Assembly (NCBI GenBank): GCA_963704755.1
Contig: OY969938.1
Coordinates: 4,800,001-4,832,000, forward strand
Source of the DNA: an uncultured Chloroflexia bacterium
GTDB taxonomy: Bacteria > Chloroflexota > Anaerolineae > Anaerolineales > Anaerolineaceae
Length of the DNA stretch: 32,000 bases
Direction of reading: 5' to 3'
Numbering within the stretch: the stretch's first letter is position 1; each line of letters begins with the position of its first letter. Position numbers and translations under genes: made by a program. A model generated the notes under the pieces. It had not been told where the DNA came from. It did no database searches and saw nothing but the letters and a program-made list of their open reading frames with translations. This document shows positions 8,560 through 27,029 of this stretch, piece by piece.

Positions 8560-8571
8560 TCCAACTTACTC

Positions 8572-9879: not shown

Positions 9880-9900
9880 GAATGAAGGAGAAGATGATTT

Positions 9901-11463
9901 ATGAGCACGAATGCGCAAGAGTCGAAGAGATATACCCGTCGAAGTTTTTTGAAGGGTGCAGCCGGAGTCGCTGCAATTGGTGTATTGGGCAGCTGCGCGC
10001 CAAAATTGGCTACCCCCGAAGGCGCTGCAACGGAAGAATCGACTTCCACGGAACCCATCGAAGTTTCCGAAACGATGGATGCTGACATCGTTGTAGTCGG
10101 TGGCGGGTCATCAGGGATGTGCGCGACCGTCCAGGCGGCCCAATTAGGCGCGAAAGTTATGCTCCTGGAGAAAAATTCCACCCTGGGTGGAAATGGTAAT
10201 GGCACCGAAGGGATGTTCGCCATTGGCAGTGATATGCAGAAGAAGGCCGGCATCGAAATCACTTTCCGTGAAATCATTTCCACCGAGCAAGAGTTCTTTA
10301 ATTACCGGGTGAACGCCTTATTCTGGAAAGACATGGTGGAAGCTTCGGCGGACGATCTCAACTGGCTAATCGATAACGGTGTGCCGTTTTCCGGTGTGGT
10401 CGACGATTATTACGGGCTAGGTAAGGTCAAAGCCTTCCACTGGTTCAAAGATGGAAAAGGCAAAAATTATATGGACGCCATGGCAGCCAAGGCCAAAGAC
10501 CTGGGCGTCACGGTTATGACCAGCACACCCGCCACCGATTTACTCCTGGATGGGAACAAAGTCGCCGGTGTTTATGCTAAAAAAGAAGACGGCAGCATGA
10601 TCCTGATCAATTGCAAGGCCGTGATTCTGGCTTCCGGCGGGTACGTGGACAATACCGATATGATGAACGCTCGTGGCTACGACATGACCTATTCGGCTCA
10701 CCAGGGTTTTCCCGGACACGACGGGGATGGGTTGAGGATGGCATCTGTCGCGGGCGCCGAGGACGTTTCATTGGAGCGGTGTTTCTTGCGTGACCCCTAT
10801 TCATACGGGATCGATTTCTTTGGTACCATGACACAGGCTATTCACCGCGGTGGGCCGTTCTTGTGGGTCAACCAGGACGCGGTTCGTTATTGCAATGAAG
10901 CCTGTGGAGCGTTCACGCCTGGGAATAACTCCAACGCCGTCCATACCCAGAAGACTTCCTATTTGATCTTCGATCACGGTGTTTTGGCCAAACTGGCCGA
11001 GTCGGTGGATAACCTGGAAGCGGATGTAGAAGATGCCGTCCAGAAATGCCCCGGCAAAAATATCTACAAAGCGAATACCATCCAGGACCTGGCCAACCAG
11101 ATCGGTCTCGATCCGGATACACTGTCCGCCACACTCGATCGCTACAACTCCTTGTGCAAGCAGGGCCTGGATGAAGATTTCGGTAAAACAGCCGATGATT
11201 TAATCGAGCTATCCTCGGCGCCGTATTATATCTTCAGGCAGGATATGTCCTTCTGGACTTCGATCGGCGGTATTCAAACCAATCGCAAGATGGAAGCGAT
11301 CAATGCCAGCGGCGATCCCATCCCAGGTCTGTATGTAGCCGGTACCGACGGTTGCGAGCTCTACCGCGAGACGTACACCATGAACGTGCCCGCGTCTTGC
11401 AACGCCAACAACTGCTATTCCGGCCGGACGGCTGCCAAGAACGCCTACGCCTCGATGGCCTAA
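9901..11463 (+). CDS. FAD-dependent oxidoreductase of the fumarate reductase / 3-ketosteroid dehydrogenase flavoprotein family, with a Tat signal and possible lipobox
   Basis: The twin-arginine motif TRRSFLKGAAGVAAIGVLGSC is followed by the dinucleotide fold DIVVVGGGSSGMCA...LLEK...GGN and the C-terminal GLYVAGTD motif. Confidence 0.75.
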   Translation: MSTNAQESKRYTRRSFLKGAAGVAAIGVLGSCAPKLATPEGAATEESTSTEPIEVSETMDADIVVVGGGSSGMCATVQAAQLGAKVMLLEKNSTLGGNGNGTEGMFAIGSDMQKKAGIEITFREIISTEQEFFNYRVNALFWKDMVEASADDLNWLIDNGVPFSGVVDDYYGLGKVKAFHWFKDGKGKNYMDAMAAKAKDLGVTVMTSTPATDLLLDGNKVAGVYAKKEDGSMILINCKAVILASGGYVDNTDMMNARGYDMTYSAHQGFPGHDGDGLRMASVAGAEDVSLERCFLRDPYSYGIDFFGTMTQAIHRGGPFLWVNQDAVRYCNEACGAFTPGNNSNAVHTQKTSYLIFDHGVLAKLAESVDNLEADVEDAVQKCPGKNIYKANTIQDLANQIGLDPDTLSATLDRYNSLCKQGLDEDFGKTADDLIELSSAPYYIFRQDMSFWTSIGGIQTNRKMEAINASGDPIPGLYVAGTDGCELYRETYTMNVPASCNANNCYSGRTAAKNAYASMA

Positions 11464-11470
11464 GCTAATC

Positions 11471-11512
11471 AAAACAAGAGGGTGGCAAACCGCCACCCTC
11501 TTGTTTTCGTTT
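11471..11512 (+). terminator. intrinsic terminator of the flavoprotein gene
   Basis: AAAACAAGAGGGTGGC-AAACC-GCCACCCTCTTGTTTT followed by CGTTTTT. Confidence 0.8.
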
Positions 11513-11532
11513 TTGGTATGCTTAATCCTAAC

Positions 11533-11583
11533 CGAATTCAAGGTGTCTGTGAGGGCTGCGCCTACGCAGACACCTTGAATTCG
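11533..11583 (-). terminator. 17-bp perfect-stem hairpin immediately downstream of the minus-strand oxidoreductase gene (no clear U-tract)
   Basis: CGAATTCAAGGTGTCTG ... CAGACACCTTGAATTCG. Confidence 0.45.
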
Positions 11584-11589
11584 GGTTCT

Positions 11590-12771
11590 TTACTTGATCA
11601 GCCCAGGCAAATTTGTGGGGGAAATGACTTCGCCGGCCTGGATGAGTGCGCGGGCTTCATCCACCTTGCCCCAGGTATCGACCAGCAGCACACCAGCTAC
11701 ACGGCTTTCCTGCAGGTAATAAACGACCCCCTTCTTGTACGGCTCTACCCAATCGCCGACGATGGGCAGGCTGGAATCGACCAGTCCAACCGCTTCGTAG
11801 CCCAGCTCGAACAGGTCGGAATAGAACATGGGCAGGAAGTGATATTCCTCGTGCTGCCCGGCCATGGACAGGCCGGCTAATTCGCCGCTTTTGTTGGCGT
11901 GGTCCTCATGCTCGGCATGCAGAAATTGGTGCAGATACGGGCTGTAGAAATCGATCACATCCCCGGCGGCGAAGATGTCCGCCAGGCTGGTGTGGTAGCC
12001 CGCATCGACCTGGATCCCTTTGCGGATGGTCACGCCGAGCTGCTGGGCCAGCTCCAGGTTGGGGCGGACCCCCAGGCCGGCGATGATGGCGTCGGCTTCG
12101 AGGCGCTCGCCCCGGTCGGTAACGACAAACGGTCGCGCATTTTCTTCGCCGACCTGCGCGACCATCCGGCCGTTCATCACACGCACACCTTTTCCTTCGT
12201 AAAACTGATTGATTTTTACGGCCATGTCATGCGGAAAGATCCGTTGGGCGATGCCATCTTCCGGAAATACCATGGTGACCTGCTTGCCCTGGCTGCTTAG
12301 CGCAGCGGCGATCTCGGAACCGATGTAGCCACCCCCGATCAAGATGAAGTCCTGGTTCGCGGCGGCTTTTTCGCGCAGCAAATGGTAATCATCCAGGGTG
12401 CGGTAGTAGATCACGGAGTCGGGGGCATCTTTCAGACGAATCGGTTTGGCGCCGGTGGCCAGCAGCAAGGACTCATATTCGAATTCAGCGCCGCTTTCGT
12501 CCTGGATGGTCCTGGCCTGGGGATCGACGGCGACGACTTTGTGTCCCAGGCGCATTTCTACTCCCAGGTTTTCGGTGTGGCGCCAGATATTATCTTCTTT
12601 TTGTTTTTTCCATAACCCTTTGGAGAGGGGCGGCCGGTTATACGGGGCAAATTTTTCTTTTCCGACCATCAGGATGGGGCTGTTGGGGTCCGCACGGCGG
12701 ATGCCGCGGGCAGCAGCGTCGGCGGCCATGCCACCGCCGGCGATAATGTATTTGAAGTGTTGCGTTGTCAT
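11590..12771 (-). CDS. NAD(P)/FAD-dependent pyridine nucleotide-disulfide oxidoreductase (ferredoxin-reductase / AIF-like)
   Basis: YIIAGGGMAADAAA (FAD GxGxxA), YNRPPLSK, FILIGGGYIGSEIAAAL (NAD fold) and IFAAGDV. GGAGG RBS at about 12779-12783. Confidence 0.8.
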   Translation of the reverse strand: MTTQHFKYIIAGGGMAADAAARGIRRADPNSPILMVGKEKFAPYNRPPLSKGLWKKQKEDNIWRHTENLGVEMRLGHKVVAVDPQARTIQDESGAEFEYESLLLATGAKPIRLKDAPDSVIYYRTLDDYHLLREKAAANQDFILIGGGYIGSEIAAALSSQGKQVTMVFPEDGIAQRIFPHDMAVKINQFYEGKGVRVMNGRMVAQVGEENARPFVVTDRGERLEADAIIAGLGVRPNLELAQQLGVTIRKGIQVDAGYHTSLADIFAAGDVIDFYSPYLHQFLHAEHEDHANKSGELAGLSMAGQHEEYHFLPMFYSDLFELGYEAVGLVDSSLPIVGDWVEPYKKGVVYYLQESRVAGVLLVDTWGKVDEARALIQAGEVISPTNLPGLIK

Positions 12772-13006
12772 GATTTGTCCTCCACTATGCTTGAACTCTA
12801 CAGCAAATTTGGTGAAAGTAAACAGAGATAATACATCAATTATATAAGCATTTGTGCTCGAATTATTGGGACGTTGATCAAGTTTATGTGATGTGGGCGG
12901 GCTTTTGCAGCAATCATATCCCTGTGAACTCTGCTTGTTAACACTTTCAACAATCTTTATTTCATCAATGTTTCAAATTATGTAATCTGAAACTTGAAAT
13001 TTTACA

Positions 13007-13015
13007 TGATAGAAT
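13007..13015 (+). promoter_or_regulatory. extended -10 element (TGATAGAAT) upstream of the TetR gene
   Basis: The TGnTAGAAT match lies ~20-30 nt upstream of the GTG 13034 / ATG 13040 starts, embedded in overlapping inverted words (TTTCAA/TTGAAA, ATGTAA/TTACAT at 12971-13007). Confidence 0.35.
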
Positions 13016-13033
13016 CAGAAATAAAACTGGAAA

Positions 13034-13627
13034 GTGGTTATGAATTTGGATAAGATCTCGCTTGATAAGGAAATAATCCTCAATGCAACAGAAGAAGTTA
13101 TTCGCCGTTTCGGACCAGACAAGGCGAATATCACTGACGTAGCAAAATCATTAAAAGTCAGCCATGCTGCCCTTTATAGATATTTTGCTGGGAAAACTGC
13201 CCTTTGGAATGCTGTTACCGAACGCTGGCTAACCAATATGAATGCCAGTTCAGAAGAAATTCTAAAAGAAGATAATCCTGCGGATATTAAACTTTTTCAT
13301 TTACTCGAAGACTTTACTGAAGCTAAACGCCGCAGCGCGATTAATGACCCGGAAATGTTTGCGAATTACATTAAGCTGGCCCACAGCTCAAAGGAAATAA
13401 TCGAAAAAAGTATCGAAGAAGTTATTAATCGTATCGAGGAGATTATCGTTCAAGGAATTTCGGAAGGTATATTTTTTACCGAATCTCCTCGTCAAGCAGC
13501 AAGAACTGTATATCTAGCAACCGGTGTTTTTATCAACCCCAACTTATTTGATGATCCGAATCGAAAACAGAACATAGAATCGGTTGTAGGACTTCTGATA
13601 AGAGGACTTAAAAATCCTGATAAATGA
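13034..13627 (+). CDS. TetR/AcrR family transcriptional regulator
   Basis: The N-terminal HTH reads ILNATEEVIRRFGPDKANITDVAKSLKVSHAALYRYFAGK, followed by an all-helical C-terminal domain. ATG 13040 is an alternative start. The gene is visibly AT-rich. Confidence 0.85.
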   Translation: MVMNLDKISLDKEIILNATEEVIRRFGPDKANITDVAKSLKVSHAALYRYFAGKTALWNAVTERWLTNMNASSEEILKEDNPADIKLFHLLEDFTEAKRRSAINDPEMFANYIKLAHSSKEIIEKSIEEVINRIEEIIVQGISEGIFFTESPRQAARTVYLATGVFINPNLFDDPNRKQNIESVVGLLIRGLKNPDK

Positions 13628-13676
13628 ATCAAGCAGGAAATGGGGGCCAGCTTCGTCCTCTCGCGATGCCTTTTTT

Positions 13677-13692
13677 TTGTAACGGGTTACAA
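13677..13692. promoter_or_regulatory. perfect 7-2-7 palindrome TTGTAAC-GG-GTTACAA (operator-like), with further GTTACA/TGTAAC half-sites at 13744-13749 and 13762-13767
   Basis: Read directly. It lies between the TetR stop (T8 run at 13671-13678) and the AAGGAG RBS (13791-13796) of the next gene. Confidence 0.4.
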
Positions 13693-13804
13693 ATTAAAAT
13701 ATATTGTATTTTGTAGCGTAATATAGTACTATTGTGGCTGGTAGTTACAGTATCATAAATATGTAACCTGTAGCACAAATATTAAAGGTTAAGGAGAATT
13801 CCTT

Positions 13805-14779
13805 ATGCGTAATCAAGAACCGACTGCCGACATGTCGGCGGTCACGAGCAGAGCGGTCCGGCTCGAGTCATTCGGCGGTCCTGAGGCCCTCACCGTTCGC
13901 GAAGTACCCGTGCCGCAGGCCGGATCGGGGCAGATTCGGGTTCGCGTCACCGCGGCCGGACTGAACCCGATGGACTGGATTATGACCTCTGACGCAGACA
14001 GCGCCACTCGATTCGGTTTGAGCCTGCCGTGCGGGTTCGGAACCGACTATGCCGGGATCGTGGACCAGGTCGGTAACGGTGTGACCGGGTTCGCGGCCGG
14101 CGACCGGGTGTTCGGCGCCGCCCTCTCCCGCGCGATATCCACCTACATTGTCCTGGACGTGGCAAAGACCATCGCGGCGGGCAGCGACGTGCACCACACC
14201 CCCGATGGCGTCGACGACCGCACTGCCGCCACACTTACGGTCGCAGGTTGCACGGCCTCCGCCGCCCTCGCCGTGGTCAACCCCGGCCCGCACGACACGG
14301 TGCTCATTGGCGGCGCGGGAGGCGGAGTGGGCGTGTTCGCTGTCCAGCTCGCCCGGCTCGCAGGCGCGCGAGTGATCGGCACGGGATCGGCAACCTCGGC
14401 CGATGACCTTCGTGCCCTCGGGGCCGAGCCGGTTACCTATGGCGAGGGCATGGTCGACCGGCTCCGCGCCCTGGCTCCCGCCGGCATCACTGCGGCCATC
14501 GACCTGTACGGGACCGACACGGTGCGGGCGGCCCGCGAACTTGGCGTTCCAGACGAGCGCATCACCGGCATCGCTGCACGGATCGACGGGATCAGGACGG
14601 CAAATGGGGCGAACGCCTCCCCTGGCGCCATAGAAGAGATTGCACGCATGGTCGCTGCGGGCCGGCTCCGAGTGCCCATCGCAGCAAGTTTCCCGATGGA
14701 GCAGATCCGTGCGGCGGTCGAGCTTCAGGCCAGCCGGCACGTGCACGGTAAGGTCGTCATCGACATCAGTCTGGGATAA
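13805..14779 (+). CDS. NADPH:quinone oxidoreductase / zeta-crystallin-like MDR-family oxidoreductase
   Basis: VRV.AAGLNPMDW, GDRVFG, and the Rossmann motif VLIGGAGGGVGVFAVQLA, ending in HGKVVI. Very GC-rich with G/C-dominated third positions. Strong AAGGAG RBS. Confidence 0.8.
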   Translation: MRNQEPTADMSAVTSRAVRLESFGGPEALTVREVPVPQAGSGQIRVRVTAAGLNPMDWIMTSDADSATRFGLSLPCGFGTDYAGIVDQVGNGVTGFAAGDRVFGAALSRAISTYIVLDVAKTIAAGSDVHHTPDGVDDRTAATLTVAGCTASAALAVVNPGPHDTVLIGGAGGGVGVFAVQLARLAGARVIGTGSATSADDLRALGAEPVTYGEGMVDRLRALAPAGITAAIDLYGTDTVRAARELGVPDERITGIAARIDGIRTANGANASPGAIEEIARMVAAGRLRVPIAASFPMEQIRAAVELQASRHVHGKVVIDISLG

Positions 14780-14798
14780 AAGAAAAAAGAGGTAATTT

Positions 14799-14849
14799 GA
14801 GTGTGTTCTTATTCGTGACGGCCACGCCGCCACGAATAAGAACACACTC
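14799..14849. terminator. perfect 19-bp stem hairpin between the convergent qor-like and recJ genes
   Basis: GAGTGTGTTCTTATTCGTG-13 nt-CACGAATAAGAACACACTC. On the minus strand it is followed by a T-rich stretch (CTCTTTTTTCTTTT), so it is plausibly the recJ-operon terminator. Confidence 0.5.
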
Positions 14850-14899
14850 AAAAACTCTTATCCCGAACTGACGTTAAATGGGTTTTTCTTGGAAATGAT

Positions 14900-17221
14900 C
14901 TATACAAACAATTCGGCCGGATCGACGCGGCGGTAGAATGCGCGGAAGGATGCGGTCTCGCGCAATTCATCGGCCAATTGAGTCGAGAGGCGCTCCAGGG
15001 TGGCCTTGTCCGGCACACCGCCTTCGGCCAGGCTGAACTGGCCGCCGTCTCTTTCGACCTGGCGGATATAGCCGCGGGCGATGACCCAGCCCAGACCAGT
15101 CTCGATGGTGGTTTCACGCTGGCCGAGGGCGCCCGCCAGGCCGGCCAGGCTTACCAAACCCTGCTGGGTGCGCAATGCAAAGCGGACCATGCCCATAAGC
15201 TGTTCCAGAAAGGCGCGAGGCTGGTCTTTGTCGAGGGCAAAGCAACCCAAGATGATTCGCTGGGGGGCGACCGCTCGCAGGGCATTCAGGATCAGCCGCT
15301 GATCGGGAGGTGGGTTCCAGATCACCAGGTTATCCGCGGGTCGCAAGGATTGGCGGGTAGCGCTGGGAAAATCCAGGCGCTGCACGCCTTCGGCCCAGAC
15401 GCAGCGCGATTCTTCTCGCCCGGCCAGCGCCAATACCCGCTGCGGATCGATTTCGGCCCGCAGATCGAGCACATTGTTGAGGGTCAACAGGGGCGTGGCC
15501 AGGTTGGTCTGCGTGGGGTGCAGCAGGCGGGCGTTGTGCCATTCCAGTTGGACTTCGTTCTGCCCGCGATAATTGTTGGCCCGCACCGTATAGGCCAGGT
15601 CGAAGGGCCCTTCGGGCAACAGGTCACGCGAGCTGTTCCACCAGACCACCCGGCGAGTATTTCCGGCCGGGTCTTCCACGATCACACTCAAATGGTCGTC
15701 GTTCTTGCCCAGGCGGGTGGCATCGACAACCTTTAAATTGCGCGTAGCCAATAAAACCACCGGGTTACCCTGGCCAAACGGGGACAAGCGTTCGATGTTT
15801 GCCACTAAATCGATGCCGATCTGGTCGAACCCCAGATAGGCGTCGATGCCGATCTCATTGACCGGCGCGGTAGCACCCATCTGGCGCTGGACATCCGCGC
15901 AGACCTGGCGGCGGAAAGCCGGCAGCTTTTCGGGCTGTAAGGAAAGCCCGGCCGCCATGGGGTGGCCGCCATAGCCATTGAGCAGCGAGGCAGCCGAGGC
16001 GATGGCCTGGGTGATGTTTACGCCTGGGATGGAGCGGGCCGAGCCATGGACCGGCCCGCCCGGGGCCGAGTTGAGCAGAATCACTGGGCGCTGGTACAGT
16101 TCAACCAGGCGGCTGGCGACGATACCGATCACGCCCGCGGCCCACTCGGGGTGGTCCAGGACCAGCACCGGCTGCTCCAGCAGGCCCGGCTCGCTTTCAA
16201 GCCGGGCCAAAGCACCTTTGAAGATCTGGTCGGTCAACACCCGGCGATGGGCGTTCAAGCCTTCCAGTTGGGCGGCAAAGATTTCGGCTTTCTGGCTGTC
16301 GCTAGTGGTGAAAAACTCGACGATCGGATTGGCGTCGTCCAGGCGGCCGAGCGCGTTCAGGCGTGGGCCGATCATGAAACCGATCTGTTCCTCGGTCATG
16401 TTGCTGGGGTCGAGCTCGGCCCGTGCATAGATCTTTTGCAACCCCAGCCGTTCGGCTTTGCGCAGGCGCTGCAGGCCAAGCTGGACGTGATAACGCGCGT
16501 CGCCACTCAAGGTGGCCACATCGGCCACCGTACCCAGGGCGACCAGGTCGAGCTGGGCGGCGGCCAGTTCAGGCCGGTCCATGCGCCGGCAAAGCTCTTC
16601 GGCGAATACATAGGCCGTGCCCGCGCCGGGAATGGTACGCAGGGGATGGCCTTCCGGCAGGCGCTGCGGATTGACAATTGCATAAGCCGGCGGCAGTTGA
16701 TCCGGCAAGGTATGATGGTCGGTGATGACCACCTCGACCCCGCGGTTGTTGGCGTACTCCACCGCCGGCTGGGCGCTCACCCCGGTATCGCAGCTCAACA
16801 ACACCTGCACACCGGTATCGAGAAAATCCTTGAGGTAGGGCACGGTGATCCCATGCAATTCCTTGCTGCGGATGGGAATGTGAAAACAGACCCGGGCTCC
16901 CAACCCGCGCAGCACGCTGACCAGCAAGGTAGTGGAGGTCTGGCCATCGACGTCGAAGTCGCCCCAGACGCCGATCAACTCCTGGGCCTGGATCGCACGG
17001 CGGATGCGCTCGACGCCCTTATCCAGGTCGGGCAGGTCGGTAGGAGCGGCCGGCCGGTAATAAAGAGGGTCCAGGAAGGCTTTGGCCAGTTCGGGGGTGG
17101 CGATGCCGCGCCGGAGCAGGGCCTGGGCCAATAAGGCCGAACCCTCGGCCTGGTCGATCATGGTCTGCGGTGGCGAACCGTCGGGCGGATCGATCCACTT
17201 GATTTCCGGTGTAAGAATCAT
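14900..17221 (-). CDS. recJ: single-stranded-DNA-specific 5'-3' exonuclease RecJ (long form, 773 aa)
   Basis: DHH-family motifs: VWGDFDVDGQTS, VVITDHH, GGHPMAAG. Confidence 0.9.
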   Translation of the reverse strand: MILTPEIKWIDPPDGSPPQTMIDQAEGSALLAQALLRRGIATPELAKAFLDPLYYRPAAPTDLPDLDKGVERIRRAIQAQELIGVWGDFDVDGQTSTTLLVSVLRGLGARVCFHIPIRSKELHGITVPYLKDFLDTGVQVLLSCDTGVSAQPAVEYANNRGVEVVITDHHTLPDQLPPAYAIVNPQRLPEGHPLRTIPGAGTAYVFAEELCRRMDRPELAAAQLDLVALGTVADVATLSGDARYHVQLGLQRLRKAERLGLQKIYARAELDPSNMTEEQIGFMIGPRLNALGRLDDANPIVEFFTTSDSQKAEIFAAQLEGLNAHRRVLTDQIFKGALARLESEPGLLEQPVLVLDHPEWAAGVIGIVASRLVELYQRPVILLNSAPGGPVHGSARSIPGVNITQAIASAASLLNGYGGHPMAAGLSLQPEKLPAFRRQVCADVQRQMGATAPVNEIGIDAYLGFDQIGIDLVANIERLSPFGQGNPVVLLATRNLKVVDATRLGKNDDHLSVIVEDPAGNTRRVVWWNSSRDLLPEGPFDLAYTVRANNYRGQNEVQLEWHNARLLHPTQTNLATPLLTLNNVLDLRAEIDPQRVLALAGREESRCVWAEGVQRLDFPSATRQSLRPADNLVIWNPPPDQRLILNALRAVAPQRIILGCFALDKDQPRAFLEQLMGMVRFALRTQQGLVSLAGLAGALGQRETTIETGLGWVIARGYIRQVERDGGQFSLAEGGVPDKATLERLSTQLADELRETASFRAFYRRVDPAELFV

Positions 17222-17232
17222 CGAGGCAGCAG

Positions 17233-18066
17233 TCAGAACTCGATTTCGGCGATCTGGTCGAAGTCCAGGTCCAGTTCGGTCAGCCCGGTATCAGACAGCT
17301 CTTCGTCGCTAATATCCGTACCGGCCCGCTCGCCACGTTCGCACAGCGAGCGGTAATTACAGAACATACATTTGTGTTCATCGCTGGTCAGCGGAAAGCC
17401 GGAGGCCAGGTCGTGCTCGACCTCGGCGGCCAGGCGGGCCAACTCTTGCCCGTCCTGGCTGTATTGTTTGGCCGAATAAGAAAAAATCTCGGGATATAAA
17501 GGCTCGGCAGTGAACCAATAGATCATCTCGACCTGTTCGGGCTGCACCGGGCTGCCGCCGTTCAGGTGTTGGGCGGCCTTGACTGCCATCCAGGGGTACA
17601 GGCGGGTCTGGATGCGCTGGCGCAGGCGCGAGCGGGGGGCTTTTTTTATCCCAGTTTTCCAGTCCACGATCAGCACTTTCTGGCCGGGCTCGATGCATAA
17701 TAAGTCGAATTTTGCCAGGAATGGATGGCCTCCGGCGTTACAACGCAAGCTGAATTCCGGGTAACGCTGCTCCGGCAAAGGCGTTGGTGGGCTGGCCAGG
17801 TAATTCCCCCACCAATCCTGCAGTAATTCATCACCGGCGGCTTGCGGGCCGATTTTGTCGGCGGGCAGGCCCAACTGGTGCTGGTGGACCATCTGGTGGA
17901 AACGCTGCCCACGCAGGATGCGCAGTTCGTTTTCCTGGGCCGGCTCGGATTGGATGGCCGGCCAGGGCTGGCGCAGCAGGTGGCGCAGCTCGAAACGGCG
18001 TGGGCAATCGACAAAATCTTGCAGGTTGTTCTGGTTGAAGGTGAAATTTGCCGGTAACTCAGCCAA
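17233..18066 (-). CDS. free-standing PD-(D/E)XK nuclease of the Cas4/AddB Fe-S type
   Basis: An N-terminal Cys (DFVDCPRRF), FDLL...LIVDWKTG (D..D-x-K) and C-terminal CMFCNYRSLC (CxxCx5C). The ORF is open to 18099, but TTG 18066 has a GGGAGG SD 6 nt upstream and overlaps the upstream stop by 8 nt. Confidence 0.7.
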   Translation of the reverse strand: MAELPANFTFNQNNLQDFVDCPRRFELRHLLRQPWPAIQSEPAQENELRILRGQRFHQMVHQHQLGLPADKIGPQAAGDELLQDWWGNYLASPPTPLPEQRYPEFSLRCNAGGHPFLAKFDLLCIEPGQKVLIVDWKTGIKKAPRSRLRQRIQTRLYPWMAVKAAQHLNGGSPVQPEQVEMIYWFTAEPLYPEIFSYSAKQYSQDGQELARLAAEVEHDLASGFPLTSDEHKCMFCNYRSLCERGERAGTDISDEELSDTGLTELDLDFDQIAEIEF

Positions 18067-20296
18067 AATTTTCCTCCCAGTATTGGTGCATATGGACAAA
18101 AGGCAGCGAGGGCTGGTTTTCGCGGCTGTTCGAGCGGCCGGTGTTCCAGGTGAGCACCAACGAGCGGCGCGCGCGGGTGATCCCCACGAAAAGCAGGCGC
18201 AGCCGTTCGGCGCAGTAGTCCACCCGGGCCTGGCGGGTGGCGATGCCTTCCTCGAGGTACAGGCCGGTCACGTCCCGTTCGACCAGGGCTTTCAATTGCG
18301 CCAGGGCCTCGGCTTCCAGGTTGAGTTGGCCGCGGACGAAGTATTTTTCGGAAATGTATTGGTCGTAGGGCTGCAAGGACGGGAAATCGTAGTTGTTGTT
18401 GGATACCAGGTACACCCGGTCCCATTCCAGCCCCTTGGCCTTGTGGACCGTGGCGACAACCACCTGGCCCTTGTGTTTGTCCGGGTCGAAACCGCTGTCC
18501 TCCTCGGAATAGCCCACCAGGCGGCGTTCGTTGCGGGCCACGCTGCGCAGTTCCTCGGTGAACTGGGGCAACGACCATTCCGGGTGGATCCGTTCGGCGC
18601 GCTCCAGCACCAGGGCCAGCTTGTGGGATAGGGCCAGCTCGGCCGGCTGGTCGAATAAGTCTTGGGCAATGGTCAGCAGCAGCTCGCCGGCGGGCAGCAA
18701 GGTGCTTTCCTGCCACTTGCGGACCAGGTCACGGTAGATCTCCAATTCGTTCAACAGGGCCGGTTCGGGGTTGTCCAGGGCCAGCCGGCTCAACCAGTCC
18801 TGCCCAGTGCGCGGCCAGAGATACTGCTCCACCTGGGCACAGCGGGCGATGGCCGTTTGAGTGGCCTTTTGCAGCGGGACGTTCTCGTTCGCTTCAATCC
18901 ATTTACGGCGAAAATCTTTATACACGGCGGCCAGTTTGGCCGCGCTGGTCGGCTCGCTCAGCATAGCCAGGACCTTGCCCAAAATGTCGGCGGTCTGGCG
19001 GGTGGACTGGCTGGATTGTAACAGTTCGATGGCGTCCAACCCGGCGTTTTTGAGCGCCTCGACCACCTTGCCGCCGCGCTCGTTGCGCGGCACCAGCACG
19101 GCCACAGTCTGGTCGGGGTGCTCCGGCAGCCAGCGTTTGATCGAGGTAACCAACGCGCGAACCTCTTCCTCGGGCGGCATTTTCTTGTCGTATAGGAACA
19201 GGCCACCCGGGTCGTCTGGTGGGTTAGGTTGAGGGTCGCCGGGTGGGGTGGGGCGGATGAAAGGCGGGGCCAGGGACGAACGCAATTCCTCGACCGGGTG
19301 TTCGCTGCCCGCCCAGCGTACCAGCTCGTTGGCCAGGCTGATGATGCTGGCGGTCGAACGGCCCGAATCAGGCAGGTCACGGGCCTGGACGCCGGGTTCA
19401 CGCAGGAACCGGCGCAAGAATTCCGGGCTGGCGGTCGTAAAGGTCTCGTAAATGGCCTGGTTGGGGTCGCCCACACGCACCCAGTTGCCCTCGGACCCGG
19501 AAAGCAGGCGCAGGATCTCTTCCTGCAGGCGGGAGGAGTCCTGGGCTTCATCTTCCAGAATGTAGGGCCAGCGATAGCGCAGGCGTTGGAGATAGTCTTC
19601 ATCTGAATGTATGGCTAAGAGGGCAAAGCGGATCAGATCGTCGAAATCGACCGCGCTGCGGTAGCTTAATCCACGCTGGTAAGCGGTATAGACTTCCAGG
19701 CCCAGCTCGAGCAGCGGGCTGGAGAAATTTAACTCGTCCATCTGGCGGCGGATATCGTCCGGGCTGACCTGCAAGTCTTTGGCCAGGCGGATGTAGCTGT
19801 GCGCCAGGCTAACGACCGCCGACTCCCAATCCCGGTAGGCTCGCTGGTTGTTGCGTAAATCGATATCGCTGGATGTATATTGTTCGTAAAATTCGGGGTG
19901 GGCCCGCAGCCAACCGTTGACGGCTACCTGCAAAATATCATCCGATTCGCGCTCGTCCACGATGGTGAAGCGGTCGGATAAACCGGCCAGGTCGGGGCGT
20001 TCACGCACAATGTCGTGGGCCAGGCCGTGCAGGGTGCGCACCCGGTAGCCCAGGTCGCGCAAGAAGCCGGACTCCTCGATGAAACCGCCTACCCGGCTGG
20101 AGAAATTGTCCACGGCCGAATTGACCAGGGTCACGATCAAGATTTCCTGGCCGTCATTCAGGGAGTCAGAGGCGATCAGGTTGGCGGCCAGGCGCGAAAG
20201 GGTGTAGGTTTTGCCGCTGCCGGGAACGGCCGATACGCCCATCCAGCCACCTTTGTAAGTCAGTACCCTGGCCTGGTTGGGGCGGGGATTAAACAT
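18059..20296 (-). CDS. UvrD/PcrA/Rep-type SF1A DNA helicase (745 aa, no nuclease domain recognised)
   Basis: Motifs I AVPGSGKTYT, Ia IVTLVNSA, II YILEDEAQDSS, III VGDPNQAIY, V VHKAKGLEWDRVYL and VI FVGITRARRSL. Confidence 0.85.
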   Translation of the reverse strand: MFNPRPNQARVLTYKGGWMGVSAVPGSGKTYTLSRLAANLIASDSLNDGQEILIVTLVNSAVDNFSSRVGGFIEESGFLRDLGYRVRTLHGLAHDIVRERPDLAGLSDRFTIVDERESDDILQVAVNGWLRAHPEFYEQYTSSDIDLRNNQRAYRDWESAVVSLAHSYIRLAKDLQVSPDDIRRQMDELNFSSPLLELGLEVYTAYQRGLSYRSAVDFDDLIRFALLAIHSDEDYLQRLRYRWPYILEDEAQDSSRLQEEILRLLSGSEGNWVRVGDPNQAIYETFTTASPEFLRRFLREPGVQARDLPDSGRSTASIISLANELVRWAGSEHPVEELRSSLAPPFIRPTPPGDPQPNPPDDPGGLFLYDKKMPPEEEVRALVTSIKRWLPEHPDQTVAVLVPRNERGGKVVEALKNAGLDAIELLQSSQSTRQTADILGKVLAMLSEPTSAAKLAAVYKDFRRKWIEANENVPLQKATQTAIARCAQVEQYLWPRTGQDWLSRLALDNPEPALLNELEIYRDLVRKWQESTLLPAGELLLTIAQDLFDQPAELALSHKLALVLERAERIHPEWSLPQFTEELRSVARNERRLVGYSEEDSGFDPDKHKGQVVVATVHKAKGLEWDRVYLVSNNNYDFPSLQPYDQYISEKYFVRGQLNLEAEALAQLKALVERDVTGLYLEEGIATRQARVDYCAERLRLLFVGITRARRSLVLTWNTGRSNSRENQPSLPFVHMHQYWEENFG

Positions 20297-22409
20297 GGCC
20301 GGCGCTTTCCGCTATAAACAGGCGGTGCAAAATGATGTTCATCGCTTGCAGCAGTGCCCCTCTTTCCTCGGCGCCGCGCTCGTTGATGCGGTTGCTATAC
20401 AGGTAAACATGGGTTCGGCAGCGAGCCAGCAGCCCGCCGGTCAGACGTACCAGGGTTTGCTGGTTGGCCTCGTACTCATCCGCGTCGGTCCAGACCTTGT
20501 CGATCGGCCAGCGCCGGCTGAGCACATACGGGTGGGTCAAGGGCTGGTAGAGACGCTCCCACCAGGCTTGCGCGCCGATATCCAGCCAGAACTGGTAGCT
20601 TACCGGGCGATTGGCCATGATGAAGGTGAAAGCCGGGGCAATCAGGACGGCGTCCGTTTCTTCTTGATAGGGCTGCAAGTACTGCGAGGCGATCACGCCT
20701 TCGCGCACCATGCGTAAATAGATTTCTCCCAGGTCGGAGGATGAGCTGCTGAGGGTGTTTTCGGCTACCCGGCGGAATTTCTGGATCAATTCGATCAGCC
20801 GGGCCGTGACCCCGGCCGCCTCGAAGTTGTCGTGAAAGCCAAAGCCGGGTTGCGAAATGACTTCGCCGAACAGCCGGCTGAGAAACACGTCCAGTTCGAC
20901 CGGCTGTTCGGCGCTGCGATAGTCCAGCAGCCAGGCGCGCAGGCGGTTATAGTGCTCGCCCACGCTGAACGTGATCCGCTCGCGGATGTCCGCGATCACC
21001 GGGTCGAAGTCGCCCAGCGGGTCTTCCACGTTGCGGTAACGGTACAATACGGCCGTGATCAGTTCGGCCCGCACCAGGTCGATGCCCTGGATGACCTGCA
21101 GAATCATCGAACGGAATTCGGCTTTCGTCGGCAGGACTTCCCACCGGGGGTGGGCCAGGTAGGCCAGGGTGATCAGGCAGCGGGCAGCCGGCTCATCGTG
21201 CAGGCTGCGCGAAGGACGGATGGAGCGGATCTGGACTTCGGATTGGGCCAGGCGATGGGTCAACGCGTGGCGCAGGGCGTCCGAGAGGTAAGGGGTCAGC
21301 ACGGCAATTTCGGCCGGGGGGATTTGCTCGTCTTTGATTAAATGGACGATTTCGCCGCTGACCTGATCGACCATCTCGGTGAAAAAGCGCAATCCGCTGT
21401 AGCTAAAGGCTGTTTCGATCCCGGCGGGTAGGTTTTCCTCCAGGCGGTGACCCAGGCCCTTAGCGAGGGTGTCCTGGAACTGGTTCATGGCGGGGCTCAT
21501 GTTGAGCGAAACTTGAAAAACGAGCTGGTCCGGGCATTCTTCACGCAATGCATAGCCGTAATCCGGGTCGGCGCCCAGGAAAACCCGGTTCCCGCCGCCG
21601 CTGTCGTACACTAGCAGAGCCGAATCAAGGGCAGGCAGCCATTCGCGGATCACGTCGTGGGCGACCGGCACGTCCTCCTCGACGTTGTCGTAGATCAGGT
21701 GGCGGTACTGGCGCCGTAAATAACTGCGTACCAGGTCGGAGGGCCAGAGTAAATTGGCAAAAACCTCGATTTGCAACGAAAAATCCAACAGGTTGTTTTG
21801 CAGGCAAAAGTCCCGGAAGCGGTTGGCGCATTCCTGGACCTGATCGTAGAGAATCAACTGGGCCGGGCGGCCCACCCAGGCGTTTTTCAGCCGTTCGGCC
21901 AGTTCCAGGTGTGAAAAACCGGCCACAGCCGCCTTGTTGAGGTTGTCCAGCACCTGGGCAAACAGGCGGTTGCGGTCGATCGTCACCTGTTCGAAGTAAC
22001 CTTCGTCCAGCAGCGGGCGGACCACCTGGGCCATGAAATATTGGGCCGTCTCCAGAGTCAAAAAGACGGGGGGCAATTCGGGATGGGAAAAACCGGCTTC
22101 GCCTGCGATAGCCGGCCAGAAAAGTTGAACCATACGCTGAGCCAGACCGCCGATGGTTATGGTTGAAGCCAGGCCACCATCCGGGTAATCCGGCCGGTGG
22201 AGCGAATCGACGTAGGGGATGGCCAGGGTACGCTGGGGGGCCAACACCAGGATCTGTTCGGCGGGGACGCCGTTTTCCATTAAAAATGCCAACCGACGGA
22301 CTGCTGCGGTGGTCTTCCCGCTGCCGGGAGGACCTTCCAGAAACAGTTTAGCCGATAAAGGCGCAGTTATGACTTCGATTTGGGCGTTAGTCAGGCCGTC
22401 GGTGGTCAA
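20289..22409 (-). CDS. SF1 helicase-like P-loop protein with degenerate catalytic motifs (AddB/AdnA-like scaffold candidate)
   Basis: Walker A GPPGSGKTT and Ia VLAPQRTLA are present. Motif II is degraded to LIYDNVEED and there is no clear GD..Q motif III. TTG start. The stop overlaps the ATG of the next gene (ATGTTTAA). Confidence 0.6.
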   Translation of the reverse strand: MTTDGLTNAQIEVITAPLSAKLFLEGPPGSGKTTAAVRRLAFLMENGVPAEQILVLAPQRTLAIPYVDSLHRPDYPDGGLASTITIGGLAQRMVQLFWPAIAGEAGFSHPELPPVFLTLETAQYFMAQVVRPLLDEGYFEQVTIDRNRLFAQVLDNLNKAAVAGFSHLELAERLKNAWVGRPAQLILYDQVQECANRFRDFCLQNNLLDFSLQIEVFANLLWPSDLVRSYLRRQYRHLIYDNVEEDVPVAHDVIREWLPALDSALLVYDSGGGNRVFLGADPDYGYALREECPDQLVFQVSLNMSPAMNQFQDTLAKGLGHRLEENLPAGIETAFSYSGLRFFTEMVDQVSGEIVHLIKDEQIPPAEIAVLTPYLSDALRHALTHRLAQSEVQIRSIRPSRSLHDEPAARCLITLAYLAHPRWEVLPTKAEFRSMILQVIQGIDLVRAELITAVLYRYRNVEDPLGDFDPVIADIRERITFSVGEHYNRLRAWLLDYRSAEQPVELDVFLSRLFGEVISQPGFGFHDNFEAAGVTARLIELIQKFRRVAENTLSSSSSDLGEIYLRMVREGVIASQYLQPYQEETDAVLIAPAFTFIMANRPVSYQFWLDIGAQAWWERLYQPLTHPYVLSRRWPIDKVWTDADEYEANQQTLVRLTGGLLARCRTHVYLYSNRINERGAEERGALLQAMNIILHRLFIAESAGHV

Positions 22410-22452
22410 ATTTCCCCATCTTTCTGTTGGCTATGAACGATACATACGGCGG

Positions 22453-23025
22453 CTAATATGGCTGGCCGGCCAGGCAATGCAGGACGGCCCGTGTGAGCAG
22501 GGCGTCATCCGAGGCGCGGTGCGAATTGGGCAGTGAAATGCCAAACTGCCGGCCGGCTTCCTCCAGGCGGAACAGTTTGAATGCCCGCCGGTAGGGATCG
22601 TAAACCCCACGGTACTCGGAGTACAACAGCATGACGTCGAACGAGGTGAGATTTTCCCGCCAGGTCAAACGGTACTGCTCCAGGGACTGGCGCATCAGGC
22701 GCAGGTCGAATTCGGCGTTGTAGATACCGATATTCCGTGAGACCAACAGTGGCCGCAAGCCGGCCCAAACGGCCGGCCAGGACGGTGCGGAGGCCACTTC
22801 TTCGTTGCTGATCCCATGCACTGCTGAGGCGGCCGGAGGGATCGGGTGTGCCGGGCGCACAAAGGATTGGAATAAGACTGATCCGTCGCTATCGATGATC
22901 CCCATCTCTACAATTTCGGAAGATTTGTCCAGACCGGTGGTCTCGGTATCGAGGTAAACCGGTTTGCTCTGGATCCATTTTTGGGCCAGTTCATTGACTT
23001 TTTGTTGGTTTGGGTTAATTGCCAT
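22453..23025 (-). CDS. DEDDh 3'-5' exonuclease (DnaQ / epsilon-like)
   Basis: ExoI YLDTETTGLD, ExoII IYNAEFDLRLM, ExoIII HRASDDALLT. Confidence 0.8.
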   Translation of the reverse strand: MAINPNQQKVNELAQKWIQSKPVYLDTETTGLDKSSEIVEMGIIDSDGSVLFQSFVRPAHPIPPAASAVHGISNEEVASAPSWPAVWAGLRPLLVSRNIGIYNAEFDLRLMRQSLEQYRLTWRENLTSFDVMLLYSEYRGVYDPYRRAFKLFRLEEAGRQFGISLPNSHRASDDALLTRAVLHCLAGQPY

Positions 23026-23120: not shown

Positions 23121-24001
23121 CTAGTTCAAGGTCCAGTAGTCGAATTCGTCGGTGGAAGTAGTGAAATTAGGCGTGTTGCGGGCAGAAATCAACATACCGT
23201 ACGAGCCGGCATCGGGAAATTTGCTGTCGGTCACTTCGCCGATCTGCTGGCCGTTGACGAACAGTTTGAAATCATCGCCTTTGGCCATGACGCCTAAGCG
23301 ATTGGTCTGGTTGGAGCCGGTCAAGATGGCGTTGCTGGAATTGTTGCCGCTCTTCAGATCAACCTCATTTTCGCCATCCCAATAGCCAAAAATCCAATTG
23401 CCATCACAGGTGACCTGGAACCAGTAGCCTTTGATGTAGTCCGGGCTGCGCACGATCAGACCGTACATATCCGCGCCGGAGCAGTCGCCTACCTGGACGG
23501 TGGCCTGGATGTAAGCATCCTGGAGTTTGACACCGCCGGTGCGCCAGCCGTGATAATCGCTGGCGTAGCGGCTGGTCATGACTAGCGCGCCGTTCTCGAT
23601 GCGGATGTAGGTGTAGTCATCGTCGTAGGGTTGGTTTTCCAGGCCAAAATTCTTCCCGGTATCGAGGGTGTCTTTGCCGGTAGGCGGTCCCAGATACACG
23701 GCCGGGTCGGTCGAAAGGGGTGTGGAAGTCACGCCGGCGGGGGTCGCCGTTGGGGTGGCCAGGCTGGTCTCTGTCGCTATTGCCGTCGGGCTGCCGGTAG
23801 GCGTCGCGGCGGATCCTGCGGCAGTAGAAGTACTGCCGGGTAAGGTCGGCATTGCCGTTGGACTGGGTTGGCTGGTCAGCATGAGCGACACCTGGGTGGC
23901 GATCATGTCCGGGGTGGAGCTGGGGTTTTGGACGGGCAAGTTGCAACCCGCCAAGAGAGAATTGAGACTGCGATCAAAAAAGCGAAAATGGTTTTCCGCA
24001 T
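23121..24001 (-). CDS. secreted lipoprotein with a Thr/Pro/Ala-rich linker and a ConA/LamG-like beta-sandwich domain; the signal peptide is out of frame (apparent 1-nt deletion near 23952-23954)
   Basis: ATG 24001 (GGAG upstream) encodes MRKTIFAFLIAVSILS in one frame. The long ORF (23121-24044) continues with LLAGCNLP... in another frame. Joining them gives a canonical lipoprotein signal ending in LAG|C. Confidence 0.5.
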
Positions 24002-24067
24002 AAAATCTCCATTGTTGAATTGCTTTTTTTCCACAGATGGACACGGATGAACACAGATACTTTTTTT

Positions 24068-25532: not shown

Positions 25533-27026
25533 ATGAAAACACAAATCATCCAAGTCGATGCTTACGACGACGTCGTATCTATCCGGGATAAGCTCACCTG
25601 GAGCAAGGCCGGCCGGGTGCTGCTGGTGATTCCGCGCAAACGGCCACCGCGATTGGCTCGTCTGGACCTGGTGCTTTTGCAGCGCAGCGCCGCCCAGGTG
25701 GGTGGACAATTGGGACTGGTCACTATTGACCCGGATCTGACCATCGCAGCCGGGGAGGCAGGCGTTCCTGCATTTCCCTCTGTCCCGGCTGCTCAACGGG
25801 CCGCCTGGCGCACTGGCTTTTCTAACCTGTCTCGTTTCCAGTTACAACAATCAGGCCCTCGCCTCAGCCAGCAGATCCTGAAAGAAAAGCCATCCCCTCA
25901 GGCGAGCGAGCCGGCCTGGTTGCGCTGGCCAGCTTTTATCGCCGGCCTGCTGGCAATGTTGGCCCTGGGGGTCTTCTTTTTACCCTCGGCCAGCATTGAA
26001 ATTTCACCCAGCACGATGCAGCAGGAATTGGATATCCCGGTGCGGGCATCTCTGGATGTGCCCGGGGTGTTGCCGTCCGGCGCGATCCCGGCCGTGGCGG
26101 TGGAAACCACAGTTGAGAACCAGATGAGCGCCGAGACCAGCGCCACCCAGGCCATTCCGGATACGGCTGCCACCGGGATGGTTGAGTTGACCAACCTGAC
26201 GGATCAGGCGGTGGATGTGCCCTCCGGCAGCGTTTTTAGAACGTTAGGCAATCCGGCCGTCCAGTTCGAGACGACGACTGAGGTGACCCTGGACGCACAG
26301 ATCGGCGCCAGTGCAGACGTACCCGTCCAGGCCGTGCAGGCCGGCAGCCAGGGCAACGTGGATGCCGGGCAGATCCGCGGTGTGGAGGGCGACATCGGGC
26401 TGCTCATCAGCGTGGACAATGCCCAACCAATGGCGGGCGGGAGCGATCGCCAGGCGAGAGCGGCCAGTGAGCAGGATTACACCCGCCTGCATGACACGGT
26501 CATTACTGCCCTGTCCGAGCAAGCGCTCCAGGCGCTGCAAGAGCAGTTGCCGGCCGGGCAGGTCCTGTTACCCGCCAGCCTGGCAATCAAGCAGGTCGAT
26601 CAGGATGTCCGCGACCCGCAGGTAGGCCAGCCGGCAGACCAGATCAATTTACAGTTGCAGGTCACCTTTCAGGCGTTAGCGATCCAATCATCCGACCTGG
26701 CTCAGCTAGCCACCACCAGCCTGGATGCCAACTTGCCGGCCGGGTATAATCCCGGTGCTGCGGCGGTTCAATATAAAAATATCGATTCCCCCAGGGTGGA
26801 TGCGGATGGCAGCGTCGTTTGGCAGATCCATGCCAGCCGGGAGATCGTTTCCGCGGTGAACGGCGCCGAGGTTGCCGATTGGATCCATGGGCAGACCCCG
26901 CTGCAAGCCCGGCAGTACCTGTCCGGCCACCTTTCATTGCGTGCTGCCCCGGTGATCCGCTTGCAGCCGGATTGGTGGTTCATGCTGCCGGCCTTACCTT
27001 TTCGCATCGAGGTGAATATCTTATGA
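25533..27026 (+). CDS. single-pass membrane protein with an extracytoplasmic baseplate-J (gp47)-like domain; function unknown
   Basis: Soluble N-domain, then a TM helix (WPAFIAGLLAMLALGVFFL), then GMVELTN....VPSGSVFRT....FETT..V.L......DVPVQAVQAGSQGNVDAGQI......I..VDNAQPMAGGSD, which resembles the Baseplate_J pattern. The stop lies 3 nt before ruvX. Confidence 0.55.
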   Translation: MKTQIIQVDAYDDVVSIRDKLTWSKAGRVLLVIPRKRPPRLARLDLVLLQRSAAQVGGQLGLVTIDPDLTIAAGEAGVPAFPSVPAAQRAAWRTGFSNLSRFQLQQSGPRLSQQILKEKPSPQASEPAWLRWPAFIAGLLAMLALGVFFLPSASIEISPSTMQQELDIPVRASLDVPGVLPSGAIPAVAVETTVENQMSAETSATQAIPDTAATGMVELTNLTDQAVDVPSGSVFRTLGNPAVQFETTTEVTLDAQIGASADVPVQAVQAGSQGNVDAGQIRGVEGDIGLLISVDNAQPMAGGSDRQARAASEQDYTRLHDTVITALSEQALQALQEQLPAGQVLLPASLAIKQVDQDVRDPQVGQPADQINLQLQVTFQALAIQSSDLAQLATTSLDANLPAGYNPGAAAVQYKNIDSPRVDADGSVVWQIHASREIVSAVNGAEVADWIHGQTPLQARQYLSGHLSLRAAPVIRLQPDWWFMLPALPFRIEVNIL

Positions 27027-27029
27027 TCG

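Follow-up and report, generated by a model that had tools for sequence, protein, structure and literature searches.

What carries out DNA-end resection in bacteria whose genomes are scored without the known machines, and can the parts of such a machine be encoded as separate proteins? This question is raised by the 32,000-nucleotide stretch of Chloroflexota DNA analyzed here (the window), in which five genes, termed A to E, run head to tail on the minus strand according to the open reading frame (ORF) list. They encode a DEDDh-type exonuclease (A), a predicted inactivated helicase-like protein (B), a UvrD-like helicase (C), a predicted iron-sulfur nuclease (D) and RecJ (E). Bacterial double-strand-break resection is taught as the task of RecBCD, AddAB or AdnAB, with RecQ/RecJ as a back-up. 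An earlier note on the five genes had proposed an AddAB/AdnAB-type machine split into separate polypeptides, to which a 3'-5' and a 5'-3' exonuclease had been added. We find that B, C, D and E are inherited together, with the parts and motif states described below. With a probability of about 0.55, we propose that these four genes encode a split, single-motor, single-nuclease module for DNA-end or gap resection, which is AddAB-like in design and coupled to RecJ.

B, C, D and RecJ form a conserved unit in three phyla

The genome scan covered one genome per species and used a query alignment of the closer B sequences, after a 31-member alignment reaching 27% identity had proved too diverse. B was found in at least 599 genomes of the scan, and the locus counts rest on 80 listed loci in addition to three found earlier (83 in total). 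By their labels, nearly all of the 80 belong to Anaerolineae or unclassified Chloroflexota, including the cultured Ornatilinea apprima, and one is a 2.2-kb contig labelled Arcobacter sp. In 59 of the 68 loci with at least 2.5 kb of downstream sequence, B is followed by C on the same strand. For 56 loci at least 7.5 kb was available downstream; 32 of these hold the complete order B-C-D-E, and eight hold B-C-D without E. At the junctions the genes either overlap or are separated by short gaps.

Outside Chloroflexota, distant relatives of B at 21-30% identity are found in the same operon. Bacillota copies of B-C-D-RecJ are present at three loci (L085, L089 and L095), of which L089 is from the cultured Acetivibrio (Clostridium) clariflavus (B689-C744-D274-RecJ763, lengths in residues) and L095 from a Bacillota metagenome-assembled genome (MAG). 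In the Clostridiales MAG GCA_021736925 (L085) the arrangement is B672-C735-D265-RecJ759 with overlapping junctions, and B-C-D also occurs on two further contigs. Moreover, B-C-D-recJ is found on pSR56, a plasmid of Salinibacter ruber M8 (Rhodothermota), and the four products are 41, 43, 42 and 42% identical to the respective window proteins. Because all four are equally diverged, the comparison indicates that B-C-D-RecJ was transferred as one unit, RecJ included. The conserved unit is thus B-C-D-E, in Chloroflexota, Bacillota and Rhodothermota.

XRE-HTH/Peptidase_M78 regulators are a type linked to DNA-damage or prophage-type induction, and a gene for such a fusion (IrrE-like), together with one for a 202-residue protein without a Pfam match, lies upstream of the plasmid cassette (L093, positions 8059-17884 of the 56.5-kb record NC_014028.1). 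A toxin-antitoxin gene and a recombinase gene are found nearby.

Subunit B resembles an inactivated helicase

In Pfam, B gave a single weak match, N-terminal, to the UvrD-helicase family (1.5e-7, residues 7-242). Its AlphaFold2 model, with a predicted local distance difference test score (pLDDT) of 86.7 and a predicted template modelling score (pTM) of 0.83, adopts a complete four-subdomain fold of superfamily 1A (SF1A). Structural similarity search using Foldseek aligned the model end to end with the structures of UvrD, Rep and PcrA (~650 residues, E-values of 1e-21 to 1e-18), and gave a query-normalized TM-score (TMq) of 0.59 against AddB and 0.62-0.63 against AdnB. As UvrD-type structures cover the whole of the model, B has no hidden nuclease domain. 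Searches of solved structures with the single B sequence and with a 20-member profile returned matches at the level of the Walker A motif at most, or none.

The motifs of B are partly preserved. K32 of the Walker A motif (GxGKT) and N242 are invariant across the family down to 27% identity, R663 (the motif VI arginine) is nearly invariant across the family, and Q10 of the Q motif is invariant among the closer relatives. Alignment of the B family against the C family by hhalign (E-value 6e-5) placed D241-N242 of B on D249-E250 of C; the Walker B aspartate is therefore kept and the catalytic glutamate replaced by asparagine, and both motif III (GDPNQ) and the arginine of motif IV are lost. As the binding residues are kept, in addition to this loss of the catalytic glutamate and of motifs III and IV, B is predicted to be probably a nucleotide binder and not a motor. 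Relatives of B number more than 4,900 in the protein collection and fall into 1,077 clusters at 50% identity. Judged by its long invariant blocks, B is under strong purifying selection and is no decaying gene.

Subunits C and D contribute one motor and one nuclease

C matches PF00580 (UvrD-helicase, 6e-42) and PF13361 (UvrD_C, 1.7e-18), both of them helicase domains, and the motifs GSGKT, DEAQD, GDPNQ, SGRST, HKAKGLEW and VGITRAR are legible. The protein terminates 25 residues past motif VI and accordingly lacks a nuclease domain. Its best scores against curated NCBIfam models, given as bits against the cut-off, are those for Rep (129/951), PcrA (126/911) and UvrD (113/1144), compared to 92/696 for recB (TIGR00609), 75/707.65 for AddA (TIGR02785) and 63/860.75 for TIGR02784. 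Since the scores are far under every curated UvrD, PcrA, Rep, RecB and AddA cut-off, C is classed on sequence grounds as a separate UvrD-like family, and it is presumed to be a 3'-5' motor.

D matches PF12705 (PDDEXK_1) at 8e-22, with 78.8 bits against a threshold of 22. Residues E104, D121, D135-W-K137 and Q153..Y157 are invariant in 20 orthologues, as are the four cysteines C21, C233, C236 and C242 (C...CxxCx5C). These motifs place D in the Cas4/AddB/AdnA/Exo5 class of PD-(D/E)XK nucleases, with a predicted iron-sulfur site. The AlphaFold2 model of D has a pLDDT above 90 over the core, and Foldseek retrieved the Cas4-family protein ACE1, RecE, Exo5, Cas4 SSO0001 and the nuclease domain of AdnA; superposition on the latter gave a TMq of 0.52-0.57 and a root-mean-square deviation of 3.6-5.8 Å, and the AddB nuclease was weaker. 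When solved structures were searched with the single D sequence and with a profile, AddB was not retrieved by sequence, and all of these searches, those with B and those with D, yielded matches at the level of Walker A or none. Because the sequence searches gave no more than this, the likeness to AddB and AdnA rests on predicted folds and motifs.

The tail of D consists of a linker, acidic and of low complexity, followed by the conserved terminal peptide (L/I)DF(D/E)QIxEIx(F/Y) (17233-17330 in the window; orthologues L002-L083); the model gives the peptide no structure (pLDDT below 50). The Bacillota versions end in ...SWDDVPEISY or ...EWEDIEELT. The tail is a possible docking tail, as far as its sequence suggests. 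A role as a mimic of the SSB tail (SSB being the single-stranded DNA-binding protein) that recruits RecJ was also considered and set aside as speculative. The SSB of L001, the closest relative of the window (18627-19001, between rpsF and rpsR), is 124 residues long and ends in ...NQATEFHR, without the usual acidic tail of the ...DDDIPF type and without a tail comparable to that of D.

RecJ belongs to the unit, and the upstream exonuclease A probably does not

E scores 464.6 bits against the recJ model TIGR00644 (cut-off 396.9) and contains the domains DHH (PF01368), DHHA1 (PF02272) and RecJ_OB (PF17768), with legible DVD, DHH and GGH motifs. It aligns with RecJ structures in the PDB over residues 62-559 (4e-74). 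The protein is a long form of RecJ with a C-terminal extension of ~210 residues; the extension was entertained as a trait specific to the module and dropped, as a solved RecJ of 757 residues exists.

A matches PF00929 (RNase_T/DEDDh) at 8.6e-17, with 62.6 bits against a threshold of 24, in addition to models and structures of the ExoX and DnaQ types. Its motifs Exo I (DTE), Exo II (NAEFD) and Exo III (H-x4-D) are legible, which suggests a catalytically intact exonuclease. Ten of the 55 Anaerolineae loci with at least 2.5 kb of upstream sequence have A upstream of B, in two of them at a distance of ~1.8 kb; A-B adjacency is seen in closer relatives of the window, including L001, L002, L004, L007, L017, L040, L055 and L065. 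A was not found with the Bacillota copies of B-C-D-RecJ or with the Salinibacter plasmid copy. Wherever A is present and the upstream sequence suffices, it is accompanied by an unrelated 3-keto-disaccharide-hydrolase-like gene. The window gene in this position (23121-24044, minus strand) encodes 307 residues, with an N-terminal half rich in Thr, Pro and Ser and a weak concanavalin-like/3-keto-disaccharide-hydrolase domain at the C-terminus, and A may belong to the unit of this gene rather than to that of B-E. Because A is rarely upstream of B, is sometimes distant from it and has its own upstream companion, it is probably a lineage-specific neighbour in the sub-lineage of the window and not a core subunit. 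In the window genome itself, A is probably co-transcribed with B-E.

Consequently, the conserved unit is smaller than the five-gene unit of the earlier note: the order B-C-D-E recurs in related genomes and across the three phyla, and the five-gene order does not. Of the two exonucleases, 3'-5' and 5'-3', to which strand-specific degradation was proposed to be outsourced, RecJ fits the proposal and the DEDDh enzyme does not, A not being conserved.

Gene layout and junctions

The coordinates of the five genes and of their junctions are collected in Table 1. Inspection of the D/E, C/D and A/B junction sequences showed a gap of 11 nt between D and E, and a GGGAGG element 6 nt 5' of the TTG start of D. 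A public protein identical to D (P0121, 277 residues) begins at this TTG, so that position 18066 is the start already called for D in public annotation, and a public protein identical to B (P0001, 706 residues) likewise has the start of the window call. The 8-nt overlap of B and C recurs in L001 and L003, and overlaps are also found in the Bacillota copies L085 and L095; from its sequence, the overlap is likely to bring about translational coupling. Promoters and terminators were predicted along the locus no more often than in shuffled sequence, and none fell within an intergenic gap, the A/B spacer included. A and B-E are judged to be real genes, B alone having the database relatives counted above.

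Table 1. Coordinates of the five genes and their junctions in the window
Feature	Positions	Strand	Description
Gene A	22453-23025	minus	190 aa; stand-alone DEDDh (DnaQ/RNase T-type) 3'-5' exonuclease
A/B spacer	22410-22452	minus	43 nt, intergenic
Gene B	20289-22409	minus	706 aa; TTG start; predicted inactivated SF1A helicase-like subunit
B/C overlap	20289-20296	minus	8 nt, ATGTTTAA
Gene C	18059-20296	minus	745 aa; intact UvrD-like SF1A helicase
C/D overlap	18059-18066	minus	8 nt, TTGGCTGA, given a D start at TTG 18066
Gene D	17233-18066 (alternative start 18099)	minus	277 aa; stand-alone PD-(D/E)XK nuclease, predicted iron-sulfur
Gene E	14900-17221	minus	773 aa; RecJ

The ORF list, the Pfam and NCBIfam matches and the junction sequences thus bear out the five minus-strand ORFs of the earlier note with their coordinates, domain calls and coupled junctions. 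Its description of the subunits was likewise accurate: B keeps Walker A and has degraded motifs II and III (N242 in place of the glutamate, with motifs III and IV lost), a nuclease domain is lacking in both B and C (the model of B is fully covered by UvrD and C ends shortly past motif VI), and D is a stand-alone Cas4/AddB-type nuclease with C...CxxCx5C, by its PF12705 match and its four invariant cysteines.

Comparison with known resection machines

A close parallel in design is AddAB. The N-terminal half of AddB has the four-subdomain UvrD fold, has lost the helicase motifs except Walker A, and provides the Chi-scanning site (PMC3321194). Similarly, the module combines one live SF1A motor (C) with a dead SF1A-fold subunit that keeps a nucleotide-binding motif (B, corresponding to the AddB N-terminal half), D is a RecB-family nuclease whose predicted C...CxxCx5C iron-sulfur site resembles that of the AddB nuclease, and the genes are adjacent and apparently translationally coupled. 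Compared to AddAB, however, the nuclease is a separate 277-residue protein encoded after C instead of being fused to B; C has no nuclease, leaving one RecB-type nuclease in the module against two in AddAB; and RecJ lies within the conserved unit.

AdnAB has been proposed to use two motors. The module resembles it as a presumed heterodimer of two UvrD-like subunits, and among helicase-nuclease machines D superposes best on the AdnA nuclease domain. They differ in that AdnA and AdnB each have a fused nuclease, which neither B nor C possesses, and in that B has asparagine for the catalytic glutamate and lacks motifs III and IV. According to PMC3321194, AdnA keeps both Walker A and Walker B, and AdnAB is confined to actinomycetes. 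As for RecBCD, no SF1B/RecD gene is present in the operon or the window, so the locus does not encode this machine; moreover, RecC, a dead helicase that also contains a dead nuclease, has no Walker A, whereas B keeps it. The module therefore fails the fused-domain hallmarks of AddAB, AdnAB and RecBCD, while the design logic is common to them.

Two further systems share parts of this logic. In the RecF pathway of E. coli, B. subtilis and Deinococcus radiodurans, a 3'-5' helicase (RecQ or UvrD) likewise acts with RecJ, which degrades the 5' strand. Deinococcus has no RecBCD, RecFOR is its major double-strand-break route, and UvrD acts there with RecJ. The genes of that pathway are unlinked, with no dedicated dead-helicase subunit or iron-sulfur nuclease, whereas here all four genes form one conserved, transferable operon. 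Sgs1/BLM-Dna2 is similar in functional logic, in that a 3'-5' helicase unwinds and an iron-sulfur PD-(D/E)XK nuclease from the superfamily of D degrades the 5' strand; the Dna2 nuclease is fused to an SF1B helicase, however, RecJ and a dead-helicase subunit are lacking, and the homology considered is that of the nuclease fold.

Part of the module has probably been noticed before. Hudaiberdiev et al. (2017) mentioned that "several bacteria, mostly Clostridiales" have an operon of unfused UvrD and Cas4-like pfam12705 genes; its context was not one of defence, and repair was suggested as a possible role (PMC5704561). Because the description fits the Bacillota loci found here, this operon is probably the same module. 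The remark is a passing one on two genes, and the passages of PMC5704561 consulted name neither a dead-helicase subunit nor a function test; the word "RecJ" does not occur in the paper, and Chloroflexi are mentioned once, in an unrelated connection. The literature search returned no description of the module beyond this remark; PMC1193525 does not mention Chloroflexi, and NCBIfam, Pfam and PADLOC hold no model specific for B, C, D or the operon. The earlier note did not recognise the architecture as a described system; this agrees with the family models and papers searched, and needs correction as to the unfused UvrD/Cas4-like pair. In the same manner, the picture of an AddAB/AdnAB-type machine taken apart is upheld in architecture, by the fold of B and the class of D, and not in descent. 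B and C do not align full-length with AddB and AddA models, B giving no AddB match and C scoring far below the cut-offs, so the possibility that they are ordinary AddB and AddA, which would have undone that picture, can be put aside.

Canonical machines in the host lineages

Repair-gene scores are cited as published for the selected genomes of Supplementary Table 1 in PMC6452273. In this table, Anaerolinea thermophila UNI-1 and Anaerolineaceae oral taxon 439 both score 0 for AddAB, AdnAB, RecBCD and RecQS and 1 for RecJ; Caldilinea aerophila, two Chloroflexus and three Dehalococcoides score 0 for AddAB, AdnAB and RecBCD. Going by the published scores, Chloroflexota have no canonical machine that competes for the role, and a separate AddAB or RecBCD, which would have spoken against the earlier note, is scored as absent from these related Chloroflexi genomes. 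Since the related genomes are scored without RecBCD, AddAB, AdnAB and RecQ, the module may be the main resection machine of Anaerolineae. It may equally be described as the dedicated helicase of RecJ, because both module-bearing lineages are scored without RecQ in the table, and this description is compatible with resection.

Proposed mechanism and alternatives

In the mechanism that we propose, B and C would form an AddAB/AdnAB-like heterodimer, with C as the sole motor, moving 3'-5' on the 3'-ended strand, and B as a nucleotide-binding scaffold without motor function, to which the 3' strand would pass once unwound, in the manner of the N-terminal half of AddB and of RecC. D would dock on this heterodimer, possibly via its acidic C-terminal tail, and would cut the displaced 5' strand or clear blocked 5' ends; RecJ could then degrade the displaced strand processively from 5' to 3'. 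Because the core has no 3'-strand nuclease, a 3' single-stranded tail would result by default, onto which RecFOR could load RecA, and Chi would not be needed. A might trim 3' ends as a lineage-specific add-on. A bolder version, in which B-C-D-RecJ is an undescribed, Chi-independent four-subunit machine, the missing end processor of Anaerolineae and one cassette mobile between phyla and plasmids, is held tentatively and given rather less than an even chance. If the proposal is true, an AddAB design with RecJ in its operon fills the resection gap of the Chloroflexi scored without the three machines, and of the Anaerolineae scored without RecQ, in the published table. In addition, it would amount to a naturally dismantled form of the fused machines, with which one could test what the dead helicase contributes, whether one nuclease and RecJ are enough, and whether regulation of the Chi type can be dispensed with. 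Carriers in culture are Acetivibrio clariflavus, Ornatilinea apprima and Salinibacter ruber M8.

A number of results weigh against split resection. B, C and D have no sequence-level link to models or structures of AddA, AddB, AdnA, AdnB and RecC: neither B nor C is a member of the curated AddA and AddB models by sequence, and B found no match by sequence to AddB, RecC or AdnA among curated models (AddB at E ≤ 0.01) or structures. The relation to AddAB is thus best regarded as an architectural analogy. Nor is the module simply a replacement for AddAB, because A. clariflavus is scored with AddAB too (listed as Clostridium clariflavum DSM 19732, with AddAB 1, AdnAB 0, RecBCD 0, RecQS 0 and RecJ 1 in PMC6452273). 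Among the 56 loci with sufficient downstream sequence, ten (~18%) have B-C with D and E not nearby, and six (~10%) have B with none of C, D and E within 8 kb; in these six, the three genes must be located elsewhere or absent. Finally, two metagenomic contigs hold variants. L088 (1-5343) has an FHA-domain protein, a B-like gene and a short RecJ of 573 residues, with C and D not nearby, so that B and RecJ may be able to act together without C and D. The second, L087 (1-2705), has an FHA-domain protein followed by a B-like gene, again with C and D not nearby.

UvrD of E. coli, together with RecJ and ExoI/ExoX, widens nicks or gaps. The module could correspondingly serve nick or gap excision in mismatch repair, post-replication gap repair or at stalled forks, with B-C acting alongside RecJ, D and, in the window, also A. 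We regard this as unlikely, though several points speak for it: among models and structures, the best scores of C are those with Rep, PcrA and UvrD and not those with RecB or AddA, A matches ExoX/DnaQ-type models and structures, RecJ classically partners RecQ or UvrD when gaps are processed and in the RecF pathway, and the FHA/B-like/RecJ variants have no D. The coexistence with AddAB in A. clariflavus, and the RecQS score of 0 there and in A. thermophila in the published table, would fit a substitute for RecQ. What argues for end processing instead is the pairing of a dead and a live SF1A protein with an iron-sulfur RecB-type nuclease, an established signature of end-processing machines and not of excision helicases; in addition, A is not conserved with the module, and no MutS/MutL or UvrABC genes are linked to it in the loci examined. 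A is also the crux of the five-subunit complex, the literal model of the earlier note, in which it would stand in for the AddA nuclease and degrade the 3' strand, the 5' strand being left to RecJ. In line with such a complex, A shares the strand of B and lies 43 nt upstream without an intervening terminator-like site, it is adjacent to B in the closer relatives, and its catalytic motifs are apparently intact. The complex is nevertheless very improbable given that A is upstream in so few loci (10/55), lies ~1.8 kb off in two of them, travels with an unrelated gene, and is missing from all the Bacillota copies and the plasmid copy found.

A mobile helicase-nuclease system directed at foreign DNA, in anti-phage or anti-plasmid defence or in plasmid maintenance, is suggested by the complete pSR56 copy near toxin-antitoxin and recombinase genes and behind an XRE-HTH/Peptidase_M78 regulator, and by the recurrence of UvrD-like helicase/Cas4-like nuclease pairs in defence systems noted in PMC5704561. 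PADLOC gave GajB-type and Cas4-type matches for C and D and a weak GajB-type match for B. These are domain-level matches, however, and neither the operon nor the window encodes a GajA-like protein (OLD-family ATPase/TOPRIM nuclease), so that the locus is not a Gabija system. Furthermore, the other genes of the window are housekeeping genes (moaE/thiS, SMC, SurA-like, oxidoreductases, pseudouridine synthase, ruvX, yceG, ROK and fumarase), and the same flanks (pseudouridine synthase, ruvX, yceG and oxidoreductase) are found in relatives whose B is only 51-68% identical. The GC content of the operon equals that of its flanks, no homologue of B was found in phage records, and B is as widespread among species genomes as stated above. 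Owing to the shared housekeeping flanks, the even GC content, the domain-level PADLOC matches and the lack of a phage homologue, the locus is not considered a defence island, and a system against foreign DNA appears quite improbable. Similarly poor odds are given to independent housekeeping genes that happen to cluster; C would then be the UvrD/PcrA of the cell, D a solo Cas4-like nuclease, E its RecJ, and B a paralogue that has decayed. The dispersal in part of Anaerolineae (six loci with B alone, ten with B-C and eight with B-C-D, of 56) and the solitary B-like genes of Desulfolucanica and Ilyobacter would agree with this. Against it, the genes keep their order and orientation in three phyla, at identities of 25-43%, the junctions overlap, the four genes were transferred together to a plasmid, and B appears to be under strong purifying selection. 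Split resection by B-C-D-RecJ hence remains the reading that we prefer.

Neighbouring genes

In the six loci with B alone (L011, L039, L052, L054, L074 and L080), B is surrounded by housekeeping genes unrelated to it, such as those for formiminotransferase, secY or clpP, by a gene of the xanthine-dehydrogenase type or by a transposase. In A. clariflavus, the module is closely followed downstream by genes for a PP2C phosphatase and a Ser/Thr kinase (L089, 16533-19364); together with the FHA genes of the variants, they may hint at a link to phospho-signalling.

Downstream of recJ in the window, a TetR regulator and a zinc-type alcohol dehydrogenase are encoded on the plus strand (13034-14779) between recJ and a Pyr_redox_2 gene (11590-12771). 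In L001 and L004-L006, recJ is followed directly by the Pyr_redox_2 oxidoreductase gene. The GC content is 0.43 at 13001-14000, compared to 0.64 next door. The TetR/alcohol dehydrogenase segment is probably a recent insertion. On the other side of the operon, a gene for a 497-residue Baseplate_J-like protein (PF04865) lies directly upstream of ruvX and yceG/mltG (25533-28634, plus strand), and the same trio is found in L001 and L003, an odd, conserved housekeeping position for a protein of the phage-baseplate type.

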